This document shows positions 910 to 61,958 of a stretch of DNA of 64,000 nt, in pieces. Every line of letters starts with the position of its first letter. Within the stretch, counting starts at the first letter, position 1. The stretch lies in the NCBI GenBank assembly GCA_015231955.1, contig JADGAN010000027.1, positions 7,582 to 71,581 on the forward strand, in the 5' to 3' direction. The translations under genes were made by a program, and so were the position numbers. A model generated the notes under the pieces. It ran no database searches. It saw nothing but the letters and a program-made list of their open reading frames with translations, and was not told the DNA's origin. The stretch comes from Oligoflexia bacterium (GTDB taxonomy: Bacteria > Bdellovibrionota > Bacteriovoracia > Bacteriovoracales > Bacteriovoracaceae).

Positions 910-936
910 CTATCGGTATTTTTATTCGAGATTTGA
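910..936 (-). promoter_or_regulatory. sigma-28-like promoter candidate (TCAA-N15-ACCGATAG) for the gene starting at 843
   Basis: Read on the minus strand: TCAA (933-936), 15-nt spacer, ACCGATAG (910-917), 66 nt upstream of the ATG. Member of a motif set recurring in this window. Confidence 0.3.
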
Positions 937-5428: not shown

Positions 5429-5455
5429 TAATTTTTTGGGACTAGGTTCCGATAC
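5429..5455 (+). promoter_or_regulatory. sigma-28-like motif TAAT-N15-TCCGATAC directly upstream of the 5464 gene
   Basis: Good motif match, but the -10 element ends only 8 nt before the ATG. The RBS would be excluded unless the mRNA is leaderless. Confidence 0.25.
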
Positions 5456-21119: not shown

Positions 21120-21833
21120 TTATTCCACCCCCACCGTAAAGTCACTGATTGCACTGAGAGCGGCAAATTCGGCATGAATTTTAGTAGTATCGAAAAGTTT
21201 GGTTTTTGTGTCTTTTTGTTGAACAAGAAGTGTTATTTCTGTACAACCAAGAATGATACCCTCTGCACCTTTTTTTTCTAAGCCATGAATAATTTTTAAA
21301 AATTTATTTTTAGAAGAATTTTTTATTTTACCCAGGCATAGCTCTTCGTAGATGATATCATGTACAACTTGTCTTTCAGTCGATGTGGGTATGATCACTT
21401 GCAATTGATGCTTTTTCTCTAATCGTCCTTTATAGAAATCCTCTTCCATCGTAAATTTGGTGCCTAATAGACCAATTGTTTTTACTCTATTTTTTTTTAT
21501 TTTTTCAGCGGTAGCATCTGCAATGTGGATAAATGGAATGTTCACATTTTTTTCAATATCACCAGCTACTTTATGCATAGTATTTGTACATAAGATAATT
21601 AAATCAGCACCAGCTTTTTCAAGGCCTATCCCGGCCTTGACTAGTATCCGGGATGCTTTTTTCCACTGATTTTTATGCTGTAACTTCTCTATCTCATCAA
21701 AATCTACTGAATACATAATGCTTTTTGCTGAATGCAAACCGCCAAGATTTGACTTAACGAATTCATTAATCAGACGATAGTATTCCAGCGATGATTCCCA
21801 ACTCATTCCTCCAATCAACCCAATTGTTTTCAT
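21120..21833 (-). CDS. aspartate/glutamate racemase family protein (aspartate racemase-like)
   Basis: MKTIGLIGGMSWESSLEYY N-terminus and the second catalytic-Cys region ILGCTEI. Start moved to the second ATG. Confidence 0.85.
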   Translation of the reverse strand: MKTIGLIGGMSWESSLEYYRLINEFVKSNLGGLHSAKSIMYSVDFDEIEKLQHKNQWKKASRILVKAGIGLEKAGADLIILCTNTMHKVAGDIEKNVNIPFIHIADATAEKIKKNRVKTIGLLGTKFTMEEDFYKGRLEKKHQLQVIIPTSTERQVVHDIIYEELCLGKIKNSSKNKFLKIIHGLEKKGAEGIILGCTEITLLVQQKDTKTKLFDTTKIHAEFAALSAISDFTVGVE

Positions 21834-22086
21834 GATTCTTTTCTCATTTGTCATAATGATTTATTGATTAACTTCATAGTTTTCCAATGTGTTTACTGGT
21901 CACAAATCGGAATTGAATAATAAAACATTAGTTATTCTACTGTTCTTACCTTAAGTAGTAACTGCCATACTCAATAATAATACCGTTGAAAATGTCTCTC
22001 TTGTGGATTTTCAAGAAGTTTCTTAACAAAGATGGCGATATCCGAAATTCCACCAATGATATTTAGTTTCAATGTTAAAATAATGT

Positions 22087-22113
22087 TAAGAAATTTACGT
22101 CCACTGCCGAAAA
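22087..22113 (+). promoter_or_regulatory. sigma-28/FliA-like promoter TAAG-N15-GCCGAAAA
   Basis: TAAG at 22087-22090, exact 15-nt spacer, GCCGAAAA at 22106-22113, about 95 nt upstream of the CheA-like gene. Confidence 0.5.
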
Positions 22114-22208
22114 TGTAATCAGGGAAGTACAATCTGTTTCATAGCAGTTGCTTTTTAGAAGCAAAGGTACAGCTCTATCTGAGAATGTGCACACAGAAGG
22201 AGGTAAAA

Positions 22209-24197
22209 ATGTTTAAAATTAATTCTGTTTACATAGAAAACAATAAAAATAGTATTGAAAAACTTCCTCCGACAAGATTTTTAAATTTTCTCTCGCAAAA
22301 TTTTGCCCAATTTACTCAGATTAAAGAGGTCAATGATTTAGAAAAACTGGAAAAAGCTAGAAATCGTCTGCTCTTAATCGAAAGCAGTATTTGTAGTAAT
22401 CAAAGCGCTTTAGAAATGATTGAAAATTTAGCTCTAAAAAATGCAGATTCTATTTATATTGTGCTCATCACAAATCGATACCAAAATTCAAGCAATGACA
22501 ACAATGAAAATAATGAAAATTTAAATAGCGAGCGAATTGTTGGCATGATTGACCATAATTGGAGTGACGAATATTTATTAAAATCACTTCAGCATATCAT
22601 TTCCATTATCAAAATTCTCAACAGCTACCAGAAATTAAAAGAGAAAGAGAAGAGTTATTTGGCAGAATCCGAAAAATTAGTCGAAGTTAATGTCAATAAT
22701 GCTATGCTAATCGCAGAAATAGAGCAAAAGAATAAACTCATTGCTTTGGCCAAAAGAGACATTCAAAATCTCCAAGATAATTTAGACGAAGGCTTCATGC
22801 TCATTGATAACAAAGGAACAATTCTTCCACAGTGGTCTAAGGCAATCATCAAACTTTTTAATTGTGATACTCCTGAGGGAAAAAATATCTTTGATCTGTT
22901 GGAATATGATGAAATAAAAAAACAGACGCAACTTACCTGGCTGGAATCTCTCTTTAGTGAAGAGATCTCCTTTTCTGATCTTAAAGAGCTAGGGCCAAAA
23001 AATTACTTCAATACAATAAAAAATATTTATATCGAACTTGATTACAGAGTTATTCGTAATGAACACAATAAAATCGAAAAACTGATTGTCATTGCAGTTG
23101 ACCATACCATGGAAATTGAATTACAAGAGCAAATCAAACGAGATGCTGAGTGGACAAGGGCCATATTAGGTGCGATGAGCGATCGCGATGGATTTAAAGA
23201 TTTTTTAGAGCAAACCACGGAGCAAATTAGTGAGATCGAAAAAATGTTATCACCTGGCCATTTTGATAAAGATCACTGCTTTCGCTTGGCGCATTCTATA
23301 AAAGGCAACGCAGGCCTAATGCATCTTCTAGCTCTCTTCAATAGCGCAAAAGAGTTGGAAAATCAATTACATCTTATCGACAACACCACTCATACTAATG
23401 ACGGCGAAGAAAAAAACTCTGGACTCAAAGCTCTTACCGAACCATTAGAAAAACTTAAAATGACCTACCAAGAGACGCTGGATAACATGAATGCTATCAA
23501 TAGTGAAATCATCCATGGAAAGAAGTCTAAAAACTTTGATGGCGATCAATTGGAAAGTTGGTACACTTTACTTACCAACAACTTAGGAAAAGATCACATA
23601 CTGGCGCAAGACTTCAAAAACTACTTTATCCTTGATGATTTTCATTCGATGTTTCCAAAGTATAGTAATTTAATTGAAGGTCTAAGCGAAAAATTTTTTA
23701 AAAACATTAGCTATCTCTTAGAAAACTTTACTATTCCGATTGTCTCTGATGCCTATAAACCCTTCGTGAACAGTTTGGTGCATATCTTTCGTAATAGTAT
23801 CGATCATGGAATTGAAACACCAGAAGAGAGACTCGCTTTAAACAAGCCCGAAGTAGGACAAATCAAAGTTTCCGCAAAACAAGCAAGTAATCAACTGATT
23901 CTAGCAATAGAAGATGATGGGAAAGGTATTAATCCAGAACTGCTCAGAAAAAAACTCCTTGAGAAAAATATTTTACAACAAGAAAAGCTATCTACTTTAA
24001 GTGATCCCGAGATCATTCAATATATCTTTCACCCCGGTTTTTCTACTAAAGAGGTTGTTAGCGACATCTCCGGCAGGGGAGTAGGATTGGATGCGGTTAG
24101 ATATGAGTGCGAAAAATTAAAAGGCAGCATCACCGTTGAGTCAATAACAGGGAAGGGAACAAAATTTATTTTTGTTCTACCTTTATTACAAAATTAA
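22209..24197 (+). CDS. CheA-family histidine kinase lacking a recognisable CheW-like P5 domain (pseudo-receiver/PAS-HPt-HATPase)
   Basis: HPt motif RLAHSIKGNAG. CheA-type N-box HIFRNSIDHGIE, G1 DDGKGI, F-box IFHPGFSTK, G2 GRGVGLDAV. The protein ends right after the ATPase domain. RBS AAGGAGG lies before the ATG at 22209. Confidence 0.8.
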   Translation: MFKINSVYIENNKNSIEKLPPTRFLNFLSQNFAQFTQIKEVNDLEKLEKARNRLLLIESSICSNQSALEMIENLALKNADSIYIVLITNRYQNSSNDNNENNENLNSERIVGMIDHNWSDEYLLKSLQHIISIIKILNSYQKLKEKEKSYLAESEKLVEVNVNNAMLIAEIEQKNKLIALAKRDIQNLQDNLDEGFMLIDNKGTILPQWSKAIIKLFNCDTPEGKNIFDLLEYDEIKKQTQLTWLESLFSEEISFSDLKELGPKNYFNTIKNIYIELDYRVIRNEHNKIEKLIVIAVDHTMEIELQEQIKRDAEWTRAILGAMSDRDGFKDFLEQTTEQISEIEKMLSPGHFDKDHCFRLAHSIKGNAGLMHLLALFNSAKELENQLHLIDNTTHTNDGEEKNSGLKALTEPLEKLKMTYQETLDNMNAINSEIIHGKKSKNFDGDQLESWYTLLTNNLGKDHILAQDFKNYFILDDFHSMFPKYSNLIEGLSEKFFKNISYLLENFTIPIVSDAYKPFVNSLVHIFRNSIDHGIETPEERLALNKPEVGQIKVSAKQASNQLILAIEDDGKGINPELLRKKLLEKNILQQEKLSTLSDPEIIQYIFHPGFSTKEVVSDISGRGVGLDAVRYECEKLKGSITVESITGKGTKFIFVLPLLQN

Positions 24198-47613: not shown

Positions 47614-49116
47614 TTACTTTGTAACTCGCGGAGACTGAGTAGTAGTAATTGTTGTTGCTGTTGTGCCTGGGGTATTAGTTATCGTACCTCCAGTATTGAC
47701 AGTGGCCCCTTCCCTGTTACTAACAGGATTACTAACAGGGGAAGTGGTGGGGATGTTGGTAGTGGTAATAGTAGTAGTAGTAGTAGTAGGGACTGTGCTA
47801 AGAGTTGGATTTGTTCTTGTCGTATTGACAACAGGTTTTGGAGGAGGAGGAGGTGGTGGTGGTGGTGACTGTTGCTCCTGAACACCTAATACTGGCGATG
47901 GAGGCGTTGGCAATTGCACCCTTTGAGTTACGACCGGAGCAGCGGCCGGTGGCCTGGTATCTCTTTTCTCTTCTTCTCGCTGCAGACCTTCGCGTTTTTG
48001 TTCTGTCACTTTCATCTGCTCTTGGATCTGTTGAATATTAGCACGTATCTCCTCTTTGCGCTTGATCTCATCGACACTTCCTTGCACCTCGATACTACTA
48101 TTAATCCTCTGGTTGCTCTCAAGTACCTGCTGATTTTTCTTCTCGCGCTCTAACATTTGTCGATTTCTCTCCATCTCTTGCATCAATCTTTGCTCTTGCA
48201 AGGATCGCTCTACTTTTTTCTTTTCCAGCTCCCTGGTAATATCTGTGCGCATTTTCTCTTGCAACATGGTCATTCCATCAACATATTCACGTTTTTGCAG
48301 TTGGGGTTGAGCTTGTGTTTGAGCTGGATTCGCTGTTGTTGATCCCGATTTTTTTATTAAAAGTTTAGAAAGATCCACTTCAAGTCTCTCTTTCAGCGCC
48401 TCTGGTTTCAACCGAATCGGAACTGGTACACTGCTGGAAGCACCTCGAAGCTCTGTCTGTTGTTGCTTTTTGACTAATGCCAAACTATCGCCTTGCCGAT
48501 TAAGCTCCTTATTAAGTTCTCGCTCCATGGCCATTTTGGAGATACCACTTGCGCCCATCTTCACCGCCGCGATCGCTACCACTCCACTAAAGGTTGTAAG
48601 CGAAGTTAGTTGTTTACGTTCATCAAACTCCACTTGAAAATCGGTGCCTCTTACTCCCATCGCCGCATTGGCAGTCACCATAAAAAAACGGTGGCGAACT
48701 TCCTGCTCACCCTCTTTTTCAGCACCTTCTTTACTATTATTTAGCTTTCTTACCTGGGAGCGAATCTTTCCACTAATTAATCTCACAATGCTGGTCGAGC
48801 TGGCACTCGTTCCCAATACCGGAATCTTCATCTTGGAATTTTTTCCAATCACCATGATGGTTTCATCGTCAAGTTTGATCTTGGCCACACCATTATCTCC
48901 CGTAGCAATGACATCATTTTCAGAGACCACCTCTCCGATTGCCAGCGGTGTAGTCTCTTGATTAGAGTTGCTCTTGACAAAGACCTCTCCTCGTACCATC
49001 AGCACTTTGGCATAACCACCACCTGAAGTAGCAGTAGCAGCAGCAGCAGCAGCAGCAGTATAAGCAATGGTTGCGCTCAAGCACATAGCAATTAGCAAAA
49101 CCAATAGTCGTCCCAT
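47614..49116 (-). CDS. secreted FecR-domain protein with coiled-coil, poly-Pro and Thr-rich C-terminal regions
   Basis: Signal peptide. GEVFVKS...LAIGEVVSENDVIATGDNGVAKIKLDDETIMVIGKNSKMKI resembles a FecR domain. Also PPPPPPPPPP and TTTTTITTT tracts. Confidence 0.7.
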   Translation of the reverse strand: MGRLLVLLIAMCLSATIAYTAAAAAAATATSGGGYAKVLMVRGEVFVKSNSNQETTPLAIGEVVSENDVIATGDNGVAKIKLDDETIMVIGKNSKMKIPVLGTSASSTSIVRLISGKIRSQVRKLNNSKEGAEKEGEQEVRHRFFMVTANAAMGVRGTDFQVEFDERKQLTSLTTFSGVVAIAAVKMGASGISKMAMERELNKELNRQGDSLALVKKQQQTELRGASSSVPVPIRLKPEALKERLEVDLSKLLIKKSGSTTANPAQTQAQPQLQKREYVDGMTMLQEKMRTDITRELEKKKVERSLQEQRLMQEMERNRQMLEREKKNQQVLESNQRINSSIEVQGSVDEIKRKEEIRANIQQIQEQMKVTEQKREGLQREEEKRDTRPPAAAPVVTQRVQLPTPPSPVLGVQEQQSPPPPPPPPPKPVVNTTRTNPTLSTVPTTTTTTITTTNIPTTSPVSNPVSNREGATVNTGGTITNTPGTTATTITTTQSPRVTK

Positions 49117-49144: not shown

Positions 49145-49171
49145 CTATCGGAAAGAATTCACTTAAAATTA
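49145..49171 (-). promoter_or_regulatory. sigma-28-like promoter candidate TAAT-N15-TCCGATAG
   Basis: Minus-strand reading; the -10 element ends 28 nt upstream of the ATG at 49116. Confidence 0.4.
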
Positions 49172-51858: not shown

Positions 51859-52012
51859 CTGTGAGTTTCCTTGGTTTGGGGTTTGGAGGAACACATGACT
51901 AAATAAATACACTTTTGCTTTACAGCTGAAAAGCACTTTTTAGCGATTTTTCGCAATTTTTTCCCATAGGTTATGCTTGCGAAAGATTTGGGGGCATGGC
52001 ACTTTGGAAAGT

Positions 52013-53272
52013 ATGATGACACTATTCTTATCTTTGTTGATTATTGTTTTTCTCTTTAAGCTTTGGCTTTCACTGCGCAACACTAACTGCGTAGAGAGCA
52101 ACCGAGCAGAAGTTCCTAAAGCATTTGCTGAGCGCTTTGCAGTTGCCGACCATCATAAGGCCCAAGATTATAGCTTGGCCAAGTTGCGCTCAAGGCGCCT
52201 TTTTATGGGATTTGAGACGCTGGTACTGATGTTTTGGACCGTCGGAGGAGGGCTGGCACTGCTTGATGAGAACATTCGCACCCACCTGTTTGCGACGGTA
52301 TCTAGCAATGAAATTCTCTTTGGCATCTACCTGGCACTCTGTTTTTCTGCGGTGAACTTCCTTCTCGATCTGCCAGAAGAGATCTACACCACCTTCTCTA
52401 TTGAGAAACGCTTTGGCTTCAATCGTACCACCATCAAAACATTTATCAGCGATCACCTCAAAGGCATCATTTTAGGGATGGTGATTGGACTCCCCCTCTT
52501 CTCTTTTTTAATTTGGGCCATGCTAAAAGTGCCCTACTGGTGGCCATGGGCCTTTGCCACTCTCACCCTATTTCAACTCTTTCTGATGTGGATCTATCCG
52601 ATGTTGATCGCTCCCCTCTTTAATAAATTTACGCCTATGCCAGAGGGGCCAACCAAAGAGGCGGTGAAAAAGCTTTTAAGCGAAAACCATTTTCCTTACC
52701 AGGGGCTTTATGTGATGGATGCTTCTCGCAGGAGCACGCATGGGAATGCTTACTTTACGGGATTTGGAAAATCGAGGCGGATCGTTTTTTACGATACACT
52801 TTTAGAGTCGCTTACTCCCAGTGAAGTGGTGGCGGTGCTCGCCCACGAAATTGCTCACTTTAAGTATAAACACATTTTAAAATCACTCTTGATCTCCATC
52901 ATTAGTAGTGCTTTGGGGATGTGGCTACTCTGGAAAGTTTCCACTTGGAGTGCCTTCTATCACAGTTTTCATATTACAGTAGAGAGTCCAGCAGTTGTTA
53001 TCTTACTCTTCTCAATGATCATTCCACCTTTTACTTTTTTTCTTACTCCGCTCTTCTCTTGGTATTCACGGAAAAATGAGTATGAGGCCGACCGTTTTGC
53101 CGCCACTGCCGCTCGTGCAGAGGATCTGATTTCAGCTCTGGTTAAAATGTATCGTGATAACGCCTCTACACTTACGCCAGATTCTCTCTATGCTCTCTTC
53201 TATTACTCACACCCAACGGCCATGGATCGTATTGCTTTTTTACAAAGTTTAAGTAGTAGGCCTAAATATTAA
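52013..53272 (+). CDS. M48-family (Ste24/HtpX-like) integral-membrane zinc metalloprotease
   Basis: HEIAHFKYKH (HExxH) and the downstream EYEADRFA. Multiple TM segments. Confidence 0.85.
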   Translation: MMTLFLSLLIIVFLFKLWLSLRNTNCVESNRAEVPKAFAERFAVADHHKAQDYSLAKLRSRRLFMGFETLVLMFWTVGGGLALLDENIRTHLFATVSSNEILFGIYLALCFSAVNFLLDLPEEIYTTFSIEKRFGFNRTTIKTFISDHLKGIILGMVIGLPLFSFLIWAMLKVPYWWPWAFATLTLFQLFLMWIYPMLIAPLFNKFTPMPEGPTKEAVKKLLSENHFPYQGLYVMDASRRSTHGNAYFTGFGKSRRIVFYDTLLESLTPSEVVAVLAHEIAHFKYKHILKSLLISIISSALGMWLLWKVSTWSAFYHSFHITVESPAVVILLFSMIIPPFTFFLTPLFSWYSRKNEYEADRFAATAARAEDLISALVKMYRDNASTLTPDSLYALFYYSHPTAMDRIAFLQSLSSRPKY

Positions 53273-53310
53273 GTATTGGGCCTGCTTTTATAATTATGTT
53301 AGAGAAGTGT

Positions 53311-53337
53311 TAAGCTTTTTGACTTTGATGCCGTTAA
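53311..53337 (+). promoter_or_regulatory. sigma-28/FliA-like promoter TAAG-N15-GCCGTTAA
   Basis: TAAG at 53311-53314, exact 15-nt spacer, GCCGTTAA at 53330-53337, 40 nt upstream of the MCP gene. Confidence 0.5.
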
Positions 53338-53376: not shown

Positions 53377-54807
53377 ATGTCCATAACAAAAATACGCACA
53401 ATTAAATTTTCTCATTTAGCTGTAAGTATTTTAAGTTTGCTCTTCTTCTTTATTTTGACAACTAGTATAGTTAGTTCCATTTTGCTGTTTAAAATTCAAT
53501 CTAAATCAGATTTCATACAGGAAAATACCCTGAGAATTATGCAGTCAACACAGTCAATGAAGTTGGCAACGATACAAGTTCAACAATTTTTAACAGATAT
53601 AGCTGCAACAAAAGCACAAGATGGTTTGGATAGTGGATTTAATGAGGCAGAATCATTTGCCAAAATATTCAGAGAGGAGTCCAATACTTTAAAGAAGATC
53701 GGTAAAGGAGAGAGAATACTTAAGTTCCAAGAGGAGATTGATCAATCATTTGAAGAGTTCTATTCTATGGGAAAGGAAATGGCCAATGCTTATATCACCT
53801 CCACGACGAAGGAAGGTAATCTCTTTATGAAAAAATTTGATCCTTCTACCGTCAAAATAACCAATCTTTTAGAACAACAAATGCAAGCGGTATCAAATCA
53901 AAGCAAGGACGATTTTGCTGACATAACTAATCAAATAAAGAATGCCATTGTTATAATTTTACCAATCGCTGTTTTGGGATCAATATTTGCGCTTTTTGGA
54001 ATTTTTGCCATCAATACAATGATAAAAAAATTAACATCCACTCTCTATGACTCTTCTGCTCAAATAGGAAAAGGAGTAAATAAGATTGCAGAAGGAAATA
54101 AAAATCTTTTACTTCGAACAGAGTCACAAGCTTCTTCTCTAGAGGAAACCTCTGCGACACTTGAACAAATAACTTCTACTCTTAAACAAACAACCGATAA
54201 TACTCGTAATGCAAAAGCAATCGCCTCGAAAGCTACGCTTTCGGTGCAAGATGGATTAAGTGCTTTTAAGGACAGCCTATTGGCAATTGCTGCAATATCG
54301 GAAAGCAGTAAAAAAATTGCTGAGATTGTTGAACTAGTCGAATCTATCTCCTTTCAGACCAATATTCTTGCCATTAATGCGGCCATTGAAGCTGCAAAAG
54401 CAGGAGAACAAGGAAAAGGATTTGCGGTGGTTGCAATTGAGGTTCGAGATCTGGCCCAGCGTTCTGCAGAGGCCACAAAGGAGATTAGAACACTGATTAA
54501 AATAAGCTCCGATCGTGTAGAGAATGGCAGCAAACTTGTTAGACAAAATAGTGAGAACCTCCATGCTATTTCTACTGACATTAATAGTGTTGCTGGAATT
54601 ATTAGCGAAATATCTTCGGCAATGAATGAACAGCATACTGCTATTGAACAAATCAACCTTGCGATGACAGATCTTGACTCTACAACACAGCAAAATGGCT
54701 CGTTTGTTAAAGAGATTGCAACAGAGAGCGAACATTTGGAAAACACCTCACTTGCTACAAAAGAGAGCATAAGGCAAAATTTAGGGGATGAGTTAAAAGC
54801 AGCATGA
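53377..54807 (+). CDS. methyl-accepting chemotaxis protein
   Basis: Highly conserved signalling hairpin [40 protein letters not shown]. Two TM segments. Confidence 0.9.
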
Positions 54808-57284: not shown

Positions 57285-57312
57285 TAAGCAGTAGCACGAT
57301 TTATGCCGATAA
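57285..57312 (+). promoter_or_regulatory. orphan sigma-28-like promoter TAAG-N16-GCCGATAA facing the 3' end of pgi
   Basis: Perfect -10 GCCGATAA (57305-57312) on the plus strand. No plus-strand ORF lies downstream. Confidence 0.3.
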
Positions 57313-59094: not shown

Positions 59095-60163
59095 TCGTGC
59101 TGCTCCTATTTTCTTGTTTTATTGTTTCCAAGGTGACTGTAAAAGAACTACCTACACCAGTTTGAGAATCAAAGGTGATGTTGCCTTTATGGTAGTTACA
59201 AAATATCTCATACGCGACAGAAAGTCCAACCCCGATCCCGACTCCGGATCCGACTGTAACGTAGGGATCAAAAATTTTACTACGATAGCGCTCTGGGATG
59301 CCACAACCATTATCTCTAACTTCAATGATGATGGTGTTGTCATTGGAATTTCTGGTAGAGACAATAATTTCTCGCGCCGTTTGAGGATCGTACTTTTTTT
59401 TCTCCATCACTGCCTCTTTAGCATGGGATAAGAGATTGCAAAAGGCCTGCTTTAGTTGTCCTTTGCTTCCATACACCCAATCATTTTGTGCTAAAAATTC
59501 TTTTTGCAAAAAGATCCCTTCTTTGGCATAAATTTTCGTCAAAAGCTCGAGGGTGGAGAGCAACAACTGGTGTAGAGTAAATGGCCTAAACTCTCCATGC
59601 TCTGATGGTGCAAAGGCCTTAAGCGTCTGAAGCGTTTCGGAAATTTTTTCGTAGCATTTATTGACCTCGGTAATCGATTCCAGCAAGTAAGGATCTTGAA
59701 TAGCTCCTTCTGCTGCCCCTTGCTCTAGCTGCTTGATAGGCCCTGCAAGCATTGTCAGCGGATTATTAATTTCAGACGCCACCCCTGATGCAAACGATCC
59801 TAGCGTTGCCATTTTGTCTCGCTGAAAAAGATTGCGCTCCATCTTCACATTCTCTCGTCCAGAATCTAAAGTGCGAACAAGGAGTTTAGCAAGCTCGCCC
59901 CACTCATTTTGCTTCATCGCCATACGATGAAGCAAAAGCATATTTTCACTCTTTAATCCCCCCACCAGCAGTTGTAAAGGACGCAAGATAAAATACTCTC
60001 CTGCAAGAAATAGCGCCAGCAACACCACGCCTGAAAAGAGCATCCATGGCCAAGTTTCCTGACTGCCTGTTAATAATAGCGCAATTAAAATAAGAGTGAA
60101 GCTCCCAAGAATGACCAAGAAAAGGATTTTAATTTTCATCTTTAAAATCCTCTTATAAAGCAT
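59087..60163 (-). CDS. membrane histidine-kinase-like protein with degenerate catalytic motifs
   Basis: Two TM segments. The H-box position reads [10 protein letters not shown] (Ser where AHEINNPL-type kinases have His). The N-box reads NLLSHAKEA (His for Asn). G1 DNGCGI and the G2-like [10 protein letters not shown] are retained. Confidence 0.75.
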
Positions 60164-61778
60164 TTGCTCTCCTCCCTAAATACTCTGTATAGTTACCAGG
60201 ATATAAGTAAGCGCTGCCTTTATCAATCTCTAAAACTTTAGTGGCCATCTCTCTTAAGAAAAAGCGGTCATGGCTAACAAAGATAACTGTCCCTTGATAG
60301 CGCTTTAAAGTCTCAAGCAATACCTCCCGTGATTTGATATCTAAATGGTTAGTCGGCTCATCTAAAATCAGTAAATTATTCGAATGAGAAAGAATGGTTG
60401 CCAAGACCACTCGTGCTTTCTCACCGCCAGAAAGGTGGCGAATCTTTTTAAAGACATCATCACCACGAAAGAGAAAGGCGGCCAAAATATTGCGAATGGT
60501 GGCGTCGCTCTTATCGGGCAGTTTATAGCGTAATTCATCAAAGAGTGTATTCTCTAAATTTAAAACTTCAATCGTGTGTTGACCAAAATATCCAGAAGAG
60601 ATGCTAGGTCCTAAATTTGCTGTGCCTGAAGTTGGGGTGATCTCTTGGGCCATGATCTTTAAAAGCGTGGATTTACCAGCACCATTCACACCAACCACCG
60701 CCACTCGCTCTTGACGATTAATAGTAATAGAAAGCCCACTAAAAACCACGTTTTTTCTACCAGTGGTATCGACCCACTCTTTGGATAAATCTTTGGTGAC
60801 CACCACGTCGTTGCCTTCACGAGAGATCTCTGGAAGCAAAATCCGCATCTCCTCATCCTCATTCATCAGCTCCACCCGTTCAATCTTCTCCAGTTTTTTG
60901 ATTCGTGATTGCACTTGAGCGGCATGAGAGACCCGCGCCTGAAAGCGAGCGATAAACTCTTCCTCTTTCTTTAGCATATCCTTTTGGCGATTAAACTCCG
61001 ACTCATTTTGTTTGCGGCGAACCTCTCGCTCCTTTAAATAAAAATCGTAATTTCCGCTATAGACGGTAGCAGTACCAGCGCTAATCTCAATGATTTTACT
61101 CACAATCTTATTCATAAAATCGCGATCGTGAGTGGTCATTAAAATCGCGCCTTTAAAATTTAAAAGCCACCCTTCTAACCACAAGATAGTCTCCATATCC
61201 AAATAGTTAGTCGGCTCATCCATTAAAATCACATCGGGAGCGGCGATCAGCACCTTGGCCAAGGCCACACGCATTTTCCAGCCGCCACTGAAATCCTCAA
61301 CTTTTTTTTGGTGGTCACAAGGTGCAATTCCTAGTCCGGTTAAAATCTCCTCGGCACGGTTTTCGATCTCATAACCGCCAAGTTTTTCAAACTCACTTTG
61401 CACCTCTCCCATCTTATCGAGCACCTTGTTCATCTCTTCTTCGCTAAGATCGGCCGTAGAAAGTTTATCTTCAAACTCCCTTATTTTTGCGTTTAATTCA
61501 TGCACCCTCTGATTACCACTGATCACTTCGGAAAGTGCCGAGTTTCCCCTCATCTCACCTACACTTTGAGAAAAGTAGGCCACTCGCACTAGCGACTGTA
61601 CACTCACCTGGCCACCATCCACACGCTCCTCTCCAGTAATCAAGCGAAAGATCGTGGTCTTGCCTGCTCCATTTGCGCCCACAAGGCCGACCTTCTCGCC
61701 AGGATTTAATTTAAAACTCACCTCATTTAAGATGGACTTACCACCTAAATTTTTTACGACTGCTGCTAACTGTAACAT
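60153..61778 (-). CDS. ABC-F family ATPase (two ABC domains, no TM domain)
   Basis: Two Walker A motifs (GANGAGKTT, GVNGAGKST) and two LSGG signatures with a charged linker. Confidence 0.9.
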   Translation of the reverse strand: MLQLAAVVKNLGGKSILNEVSFKLNPGEKVGLVGANGAGKTTIFRLITGEERVDGGQVSVQSLVRVAYFSQSVGEMRGNSALSEVISGNQRVHELNAKIREFEDKLSTADLSEEEMNKVLDKMGEVQSEFEKLGGYEIENRAEEILTGLGIAPCDHQKKVEDFSGGWKMRVALAKVLIAAPDVILMDEPTNYLDMETILWLEGWLLNFKGAILMTTHDRDFMNKIVSKIIEISAGTATVYSGNYDFYLKEREVRRKQNESEFNRQKDMLKKEEEFIARFQARVSHAAQVQSRIKKLEKIERVELMNEDEEMRILLPEISREGNDVVVTKDLSKEWVDTTGRKNVVFSGLSITINRQERVAVVGVNGAGKSTLLKIMAQEITPTSGTANLGPSISSGYFGQHTIEVLNLENTLFDELRYKLPDKSDATIRNILAAFLFRGDDVFKKIRHLSGGEKARVVLATILSHSNNLLILDEPTNHLDIKSREVLLETLKRYQGTVIFVSHDRFFLREMATKVLEIDKGSAYLYPGNYTEYLGRRANAL

Positions 61779-61891: not shown

Positions 61892-61958
61892 TAAAAATTA
61901 TAATTAGTAAGAATATATTACGATTCAGATTTTTTTACTCATCGGAGGTATCTTAGGT

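Follow-up and report, generated by a model that had tools for sequence, protein, structure and literature searches.

A sigma-28-type promoter motif and a probable broad FliA regulon in a member of the Bacteriovoracaceae

A two-box motif of the sigma-28 type, which recurs upstream of chemotaxis and exported-protein genes in a 64,000-nucleotide stretch of DNA (hereafter referred to as the window) from an Oligoflexia bacterium of the family Bacteriovoracaceae, is considered very likely to represent the FliA (sigma-28) promoters of a broad regulon comprising approximately 100 promoters. The reading of an earlier note on this DNA, in which seven such sites were proposed to define a real regulon, is supported by a bias in spacing, orientation and position that is evident genome-wide, with flagellin, FliD and MCP genes serving as positive controls. 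We infer, in addition, that the sites are active as promoters, that they are read by FliA rather than by a second paralog, and that the genes which they precede are expressed specifically in the attack phase.

RESULTS

Candidate sigma-28-type sites in the window

All seven sequences were recovered at the coordinates and on the strands originally reported, and exactly 15 nt separate the −35 tetramer from the −10 octamer in 7/7 sites. The associated gene identities were, for the most part, confirmed by Pfam (MCPsignal; Hpt, HATPase_c and PAS without CheW; FecR; ankyrin repeats), and the remaining three products, i.e., the 769-aa protein, the first secreted protein and the Cys-rich protein, are without a Pfam family and possess N termini of the signal peptide or lipobox type. 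The base preceding CCG is a G at the chemotaxis sites and a T or an A at the exported-protein sites. The accompanying assertion that the motif is restricted to 5′ intergenic positions was not borne out, as six further matches to the loose pattern and five position weight matrix (PWM) matches of at least 11 bits are located in coding DNA; the coding match at position 39416 of the window, with 13.6 bits, is comparable to the window sites themselves.

The loosest pattern common to the seven sites, TNA-N17-CCGWWA, occurs 13 times in the window versus 7.5 +/- 3.1 times in shuffled sequence, and since 6 of 100 shuffles reach 13, no window-wide enrichment of this pattern was found. Six of its matches are situated in the co-oriented upstream DNA of the window, which totals 6.6 kb; the expected number is 0.31 when the match density of the other intergenic DNA is applied (Poisson p ~1e-6) and 0.86 when that of upstream DNA genome-wide is used (p = 2.6e-4). 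A seventh upstream match, at 43266, was counted as coding because the ORF call at this locus is over-long. With seven upstream PWM matches of at least 11 bits, against approximately 1.7 predicted by the upstream density of the whole genome, the window constitutes a hot spot. A search for sigma-70-like promoters yielded no suitably positioned candidate ahead of the MCP, FecR and ankyrin-A genes. Of the seven sites, five are at least plausible, and the original observation is essentially right; one or two (the Cys-rich site and perhaps that of the 769-aa or the ankyrin-peptidase A gene) are indistinguishable from chance.

The MCP promoter candidate (positions 53310 to 53337, plus strand) reads TTAAG-N16-CCGTTA, equivalent to TAAG-N15-GCCGTTAA, with a PWM score of 12.7, and its octamer ends 39 nt ahead of ATG 53377, the start of a gene specifying 476 aa (53377 to 54807, plus strand; Pfam MCPsignal, E = 4.7e-41). 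The candidate of the CheA-like kinase gene (22086 to 22113, plus strand) reads TTAAG-N16-CCGAAA (PWM score, 11.9) and is located 71 nt before ATG 22185 and 95 nt before ATG 22209, the latter of which is preceded by the stronger RBS. The gene (22185 to 24197, plus strand) encodes a PAS-Hpt-HATPase_c kinase according to Pfam, and a Pfam scan of its product detected no CheW/P5 domain. Both sites adopt the Bdellovibrio register TTAAG-N16-CCG, and each is likely to be a sigma-28 promoter. An antisense match of 14.5 bits, ACTTAAG...ACCGATCT, is present within the MCP coding region at 53682-53714 (minus strand; 53698) and may represent either a chance occurrence or an antisense promoter.

The best of the seven is the FecR-gene candidate (49145 to 49171, minus strand), TAAT-N15-TCCGATAG, which has a PWM score of 14.8 and a local false discovery rate (FDR) of ~0.13, lies 28 nt before ATG 49116, and is highly likely to be a sigma-28 promoter. 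The gene concerned (47614 to 49116, minus strand) encodes an exported FecR-domain protein of 500 aa (Pfam FecR, 8.1e-11) with a signal peptide-like N terminus, and 3 of 11 FecR-domain homologues from other genera of the family have, 10 to 36 nt before the ORF, a site scoring 13 bits or more. The candidate of the first secreted-protein gene (910 to 936, minus strand; TCAA-N15-ACCGATAG; PWM score, 12.6) is located ~66 nt before an ATG at approximately position 843, from which an N terminus beginning MKGFPMRVVTVALLL would be translated, and this site too is probably a sigma-28 promoter.

The evidence is evenly poised for two further sites. That of ankyrin-peptidase A (38122 to 38148, minus strand; TGAT-N15-TCCGATAA; PWM score, 11.9) lies 53 nt before ATG 38068 and combines a poor −35 block (−2.3) with a strong −10 block (13.8); its gene (36143 to 38068, minus strand) encodes an exported ankyrin-repeat protein of 641 aa (Pfam Ank families). 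Sites of at least 11 bits precede 3 of the 14 ankyrin-family genes, including a close paralog on contig C90 and a gene on contig C32, compared with 3.7% of all genes. The available data leave the chances of a sigma-28 promoter at this position about equal either way. Many ankyrin-repeat paralogs are present in the genome, and a sister genome yields 57 matches to the ankyrin domain.

The site upstream of the gene for the 768/769-aa lipoprotein (43266 to 43292, plus strand; TCAAGTTTT...TCCGATAG), 37 nt before ATG 43330, possesses two excellent boxes (two-box score, 17.8); its full PWM score is only 7.9 because its G-rich spacer costs −9.7 bits, and a spacer as G-rich is found in 1 of 31 strong upstream sites. 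Among 24 further genera of the Bacteriovoracaceae, none yielded a homologue of the 769-aa protein. It would be an even bet whether this site is a sigma-28 promoter. In its longest form the ORF begins at TTG 43219, and the true start is taken to be ATG 43330 because of the lipobox N terminus (MNATKLFYGIALPLVLIAIGVSC) and the Shine-Dalgarno sequence GAGGGAGAAG associated with it.

The weak match ahead of the Cys-rich secreted-protein gene (5429 to 5455, plus strand; TAAT-N15-TCCGATAC) has a PWM score of 5.65 and a local FDR of 0.93, lies 8 nt before ATG 5464, and overlaps the stop codon of the upstream gene. The earlier note had called it doubtful on the grounds that it would leave no room for an RBS; the doubt is upheld by the score, whereas the geometry alone is an insufficient argument, given that a small leaderless class exists. 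A sigma-28 promoter at this position is unlikely, the match being probably noise, and co-transcription of the Cys-rich gene with the abutting upstream gene is favored because of this arrangement and of a GGGAG Shine-Dalgarno sequence.

Two candidates absent from the original list were identified in the window. One (21890 to 21922, minus strand; 21906) reads CTAATG...TCCGATTT, has a PWM score of 16.6, and precedes the minus-strand gene 21120-21854, which specifies an Asp/Glu racemase (NCBIfam amino-acid racemase); it is divergent from the CheA-like promoter candidate. The other, weaker candidate (61925 to 61957, minus strand; 61941; PWM score, 11.1) precedes an ABC-F ATPase gene (60153-61778, minus strand; NCBIfam ABC-F). 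An orphan TAAG-N16-GCCGATAA element is present at 57285-57312 (plus strand), between two minus-strand genes and with no plus-strand ORF downstream; its blocks at the +1 register score 12.2 (−10) and 2.3 (−35), and a small or antisense RNA could be transcribed from it.

Genome-wide distribution of the motif

The assembly comprises 5.61 Mb with 40.9% G+C, and the window is located on contig C34. Genes were called by a crude longest-ORF/codon-bias procedure that yielded 4,433 ORFs and a coding fraction of 88%, with starts often placed too far upstream. The main PWM was refined once and trained solely on sites outside the window (leave-window-out); unconstrained iterative refinement was discarded, as it drifted towards AT-rich sequence. 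The consensus derived from the genome by the main PWM is nntTaAagtntttttnnnnnttnCCGATAagnn.

A model-free scan for intergenic CCGATA with an exact TAAA gave maxima at spacers N15 and N16 (10 and 14, respectively) versus 0 to 8 at other spacers, and no such spacing peak was found in coding DNA in the same scan. Intergenic TAA(A)-N15-nCCGATA sites are predominantly oriented towards the adjacent gene (40/52, with 12/52 not so oriented). At a threshold of at least 11 bits, the PWM has 126 matches in co-oriented upstream DNA versus 35 in the larger remainder of the intergenic DNA (FDR, ~0.17), and at 12 bits or above the corresponding counts are 98 and 22, the FDR ranging from 0.14 to 0.17 across both cut-offs. 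The density of PWM matches in coding DNA is 7 to 8 times below that in upstream DNA. The genome-wide scan that had been suggested as a check thus revealed a strong enrichment in co-oriented 5′ regions over both coding and other intergenic DNA.

The same result was obtained with a spacer-blind two-box model, which removes the bias towards T-rich spacers: in upstream DNA, 104 matches were observed at the native spacing and 83 at +1, versus ~40 at each of eleven other spacings, and matches of at least 17 bits number 15 (native) and 8 (+1) versus ~1 elsewhere. Neither other intergenic nor coding DNA displays a two-box spacing peak. The −10 box is mostly located 25 to 65 nt ahead of the ORF start. 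In the absence of gene calls, TWAAG-N15/16-CCGATA occurs 15 and 13 times in the whole genome versus ~7, which is too little signal. Overall, the excess over background corresponds to roughly 100 to 110 candidate promoters.

The confidence attached to any one match depends on its score, the local FDR being ~0.13 at 14 to 16 bits, ~0.27 at 11 to 13 bits, ~0.7 at 7 to 9 bits and 0.93 below 7 bits. Most window sites fall in the range of 11 to 13 bits, where approximately one quarter of upstream matches are expected by chance. The −10 variants seen at the MCP and CheA-like sites are also overrepresented when correctly spaced behind a good −35 box in upstream DNA (CCGTTA, 5 and 7 versus a background of 1.0; CCGAAA, 12 and 8 versus 1.8). 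The base before CCG is distributed genome-wide as T 45, G 39, A 29 and C 13, and is not bimodal.

An ATG-initiated ORF begins 4 to 9 nt past the octamer in 8 of 156 matches of at least 14 bits, versus 27 of 1,481 matches at 8 to 11 bits, a geometry which implies putative leaderless mRNAs for a minority of very strong sites. Very strong sites ending 4 to 9 nt before the ATG of a long ORF were noted at C54:12378, C81:20654, C17:52766 and C26:265010, and some genes of the leaderless type receive incorrect starts from longest-ORF calls.

Genes preceded by the motif outside the window

Among genes for which a sigma-28 promoter would be anticipated, the motif is present upstream of the FliD gene, of 8 of 26 MCP genes (compared with 3.7% of all genes) and of 3 of 5 flagellin genes, the two other flagellin genes being without a detectable site. 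The flagellin sites (C26:72622, C26:135023 and C26:110229) combine a strong −35 box (CTTAAG or CTAAAG) with degenerate −10 boxes, GTCGAGAAG, AACGATGAG and GCCGACTTG, whose cores are TCGAGA, ACGATG and CCGACT. Recognizable flagellar and chemotaxis genes account for only about a dozen of the ~100 excess sites.

A Pfam scan of 53 carrier genes outside the window left 22 without a Pfam family. Carriers with signaling functions include RpoN, two sigma-54 activators (one with PilZ), three PilZ proteins, a second Hpt-kinase and a CheY-like receiver. The second Hpt-HATPase kinase (contig C33; CHASE4-HAMP-Hpt) is preceded by a site of 21.4 bits. Other carriers encode an FHA protein, a Ser/Thr kinase, a papain-like protease, a PilT-like ATPase, an LPP20 lipoprotein, a Gln_deamidase_2 protein, ankyrin proteins and a Big_9/cadherin protein of 1,518 aa. 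The top-scoring sites (20 to 25 bits) are located before the PilZ-bearing sigma-54 activator, the Big_9/cadherin protein, orphan proteins and similar genes. The proposed coupling of motility and chemotaxis to a secretome is supported, as the motif also precedes many genes for exported or uncharacterized proteins: signal peptide-like N termini, as called by a crude heuristic whose baseline is 31%, were assigned to 46% of carriers and to 31% of other genes (odds ratio, ~1.9; p = 7e-5).

The rpoN gene (C48:195948-197477) is preceded by a site at C48:197514 (minus strand; 19.4 bits), and sites at C48:61342 (20.6 bits) and C114:12176 (25.1 bits) precede two sigma-54 activator genes, one of which specifies PilZ and GAF domains. 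The presence of sites on rpoN and on sigma-54 activators suggests a putative sigma-28 to sigma-54 cascade. For the Flp/TAD system, a single weak Flp-like ORF (21.9 bits, below the cut-off) was found behind another ORF, and the motif is absent nearby.

Sigma factors and relatives of the host genome

The sigma factor presupposed by the original proposal is encoded by the genome. Canonical FliA (C22:63352-64026) is recognized by TIGR02479 at 274 bits, its gene is immediately preceded by that of a MinD/FlhG-like ATPase, and comparison with solved structures in the PDB returned sigma-28/WhiG proteins as top matches (E = 5e-64). FlgM is likewise encoded, and no sigma-28-type site was found in the upstream DNA of the genome's own flgM gene. 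The best 80 genomic relatives of FliA are almost all records of Bacteriovoracaceae, Halobacteriovorax, Bacteriovorax or Bdellovibrionota, identity reaching 81% where only part of the protein is aligned and 79% along the entire length, and because of these relatives the host is assigned to a predatory, Bdellovibrio-like lineage (Bacteriovoracaceae); predation by the host itself is presumed from its taxonomy. Canonical FliA is present in 33/33 high-quality relatives. The genome size of 5.6 Mb compares with 2.2 to 4.4 Mb in the 24 other family genomes sampled.

A second FliA/WhiG paralog of 307 aa is encoded at C51:35286-35987 (L002:1450-2370, minus strand) and scores 212 bits against TIGR02479, above the cut-off. 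It shares 43% identity with FliA, and because the two proteins hardly differ in the segment of region 2.4/3.0 (FKTYAEFRIRGAILDELR.DWIPRSV) and resemble each other in region 4.2, the paralog should read a similar promoter. Just 2 of 24 other family genomes harbor it (1e-40 cut-off). A mannose-1-phosphate guanylyltransferase gene adjoins that of the paralog.

The sole genome of the same genus is 65% complete, and because its coding DNA is only ~67% identical, intergenic regions could not be aligned. After the orthologue of the gene at 51977-53272, this genome contains neither a promoter-containing spacer nor the motif. The one clear orthologue tested, that of the 769-aa gene, is without the motif in its upstream DNA in the same-genus genome.

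DISCUSSION

Alternative explanations

The seven sites might be fortuitous occurrences, in AT-rich intergenic DNA, of a pattern that is short and degenerate, with other promoters driving the genes. This explanation accounts for the lack of window-wide enrichment of the common degenerate pattern (13 versus 7.5 +/- 3.1), for a local FDR of ~0.27 at 11 to 13 bits that rises to 0.7 or more below 9 bits, and for the existence of coding matches of similar score, but it does not accommodate the six to seven sites in co-oriented upstream DNA where 0.31 are expected (p ~1e-6), the peaks of spacing, orientation and position that are not seen in intergenic DNA elsewhere, although its composition is the same, or the occurrence of the motif at flagellin, FliD and MCP genes. 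Chance is plausible for single sites (5429, and perhaps 38122 or 43266) and not for the set, for which it is considered highly improbable. It could also be argued that genuine sigma-28-type boxes serve the classical flagellar and chemotaxis genes only and that those before exported-protein genes are non-functional look-alikes, since flagellar and MCP genes are the sole carriers for which there is an independent functional expectation. Against this, only about a dozen of the ~100 excess sites precede recognizable flagellar or chemotaxis genes, sites of 20 to 25 bits precede the PilZ-bearing sigma-54 activator, the Big_9/cadherin protein and orphans, and motility genes alone cannot fill the excess over the spacing controls, which makes such a restriction to the classical genes very hard to credit.

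A further possibility is that some occurrences of the motif, for example T/A-CCGATAG before exported-protein genes, are targets of the second FliA/WhiG paralog rather than of FliA, thereby separating a motility arm from a surface or secretome arm. The score of the paralog above the TIGR02479 cut-off (212 bits), its near-identical region 2.4/3.0, and the presence of G before CCG at the chemotaxis sites of the window, with T or A at the exported-protein sites, are compatible with such a division. The base before CCG is, however, not bimodal genome-wide, and MCP and flagellar genes fall into several classes (TCCGAT for MCPs and GCCGAT for FliD), so that a split into G-CCGATA (motility) and T/A-CCGATA (secretome) classes is unsupported by the genome-wide list. 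Moreover, the paralog is found in 2/24 other family genomes, versus canonical FliA in 33/33 high-quality relatives, and a single FliA suffices for the broad regulon of Bdellovibrio (PMC3627812, PMC12622784). A division of labor between the two sigma factors is consequently regarded as unlikely, and a single broad FliA regulon remains the preferred explanation.

Proposed mode of action

According to the model of a broad FliA regulon, region 4 of the sigma factor would read the −35 box c(T/t)TAAAG/TTAAG, which is followed by a T-rich tract, and regions 2.4/3.0 would read the −10 box nCCGA(T/A)A(A)G located 15 to 16 nt downstream of the −35 box. Transcription is predicted to start ~6 to 9 nt past the −10 box, giving leaders of mostly 20 to 90 nt. 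The regulon would extend beyond late flagellar and chemotaxis genes to the order of 100 promoters and may also drive genes for PilZ proteins, Hpt-kinases, sigma-54 and its activators, proteases, adhesin-like and ankyrin proteins, and exported proteins of no known family. Because of this breadth, it is proposed that motility, chemotaxis and a surface/secreted set are switched on together, as has been described for B. bacteriovorus in its attack phase, when the cells swim in search of prey.

Relationship to known FliA regulons

The classical class-3 sigma-28 promoter of E. coli and Salmonella, and of SigD in B. subtilis, is TAAA-N15-GCCGATAA, the longer form of the −35 box being TAAA(GTTT). The sites described here share with such promoters their boxes and 15-nt spacing, flagellin, FliD and MCP genes as targets, and an encoded FlgM anti-sigma factor, but differ in that the −10 boxes of the flagellin genes are degenerate and accompanied by strong −35 boxes. 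The regulon is also several-fold larger and mostly non-flagellar, unlike the sigma-28 regulon of enterobacteria, which represents ~1% of genes and is essentially limited to motility and chemotaxis (PMC12622784).

The analogy with FliA-linked virulence in pathogens drawn in the earlier note holds insofar as a flagellar sigma factor co-regulates non-flagellar genes of host or prey interaction with motility (PMC3627812, PMC5430801). In pathogens such as Legionella pneumophila, however, the link concerns few genes or is indirect and is not tied to a cell cycle phase (PMC5430801), whereas the motif is found here directly on ~100 promoters, as in Bdellovibrio. A nearer parallel is provided by the global FliA attack-phase program of the predator Bdellovibrio (PMC3627812, PMC5430801), which is the best analogy because the present genome belongs to a related predatory family, the Bacteriovoracaceae.

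Karunker et al. (2013) mapped 140 attack-phase transcription start sites in B. bacteriovorus HD100, found TTAAG-N16-CCGATA in 92 of the 140 promoters, those of surface-protein, protease and chemotaxis genes among them, and concluded that FliA has acquired the role of a global regulator in the attack phase; FliA-driven attack-phase small RNAs also occur (PMC3627812). Avidan et al. (2017) reported that FliA is essential in B. bacteriovorus and that, in an E. coli reporter, it switches on the flagellin and TAD promoters, and FliA sites were predicted on the TAD operons of Bacteriovorax and Halobacteriovorax (PMC5430801). FliA-type promoters have since been used as strong attack-phase expression tools (PMC12622784). 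A literature search found no genome-wide FliA-regulon analysis for the Bacteriovoracaceae.

The present regulon resembles that of B. bacteriovorus in its two-box consensus and register, with TTAAG-N16 at the MCP and CheA-like sites and variant −10 boxes, as well as in its size of ~100 promoters, its range of flagellar, chemotaxis, surface-protein, protease and uncharacterized genes, and its host among the predatory Bdellovibrionota. It differs in belonging to a different class and family (Bacteriovoracaceae rather than Bdellovibrionaceae), in the presence of a second FliA/WhiG paralog and of candidate sites before rpoN and two sigma-54 activators, and in the lack of a G bias at the −1 position; furthermore, it is defined by sequence computation, whereas that of B. 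bacteriovorus is known from a transcription start site map, phase-specific expression and a reporter test.

A global FliA program may tentatively be envisaged as ancestral to both predatory classes of Bdellovibrionota and as having been elaborated in the present lineage by a sigma-28 to sigma-54 cascade and a second paralog, a scenario that we consider rather unlikely. The cascade would then consist of FliA-type promoters on rpoN and sigma-54 activators, an order opposite to that of Vibrio and Pseudomonas, and the motility and surface-protein arms may be timed, or kept apart, by the second FliA paralog.

The mechanism itself is not new, its principle having been published in 2013 (PMC3627812). 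The motif is of use in annotation, where it guides the choice of true start codons (43330 rather than 43219) and the recognition of co-regulated orphan genes. For a predatory lineage that has received little study, the genome-wide analysis furnishes a testable list of ~100 candidate attack-phase genes, many of which encode exported proteins without a known family, and it suggests that control of the prey-hunting state by the flagellar sigma factor, acting as its master switch, reaches beyond Bdellovibrio to the Bacteriovoracaceae.
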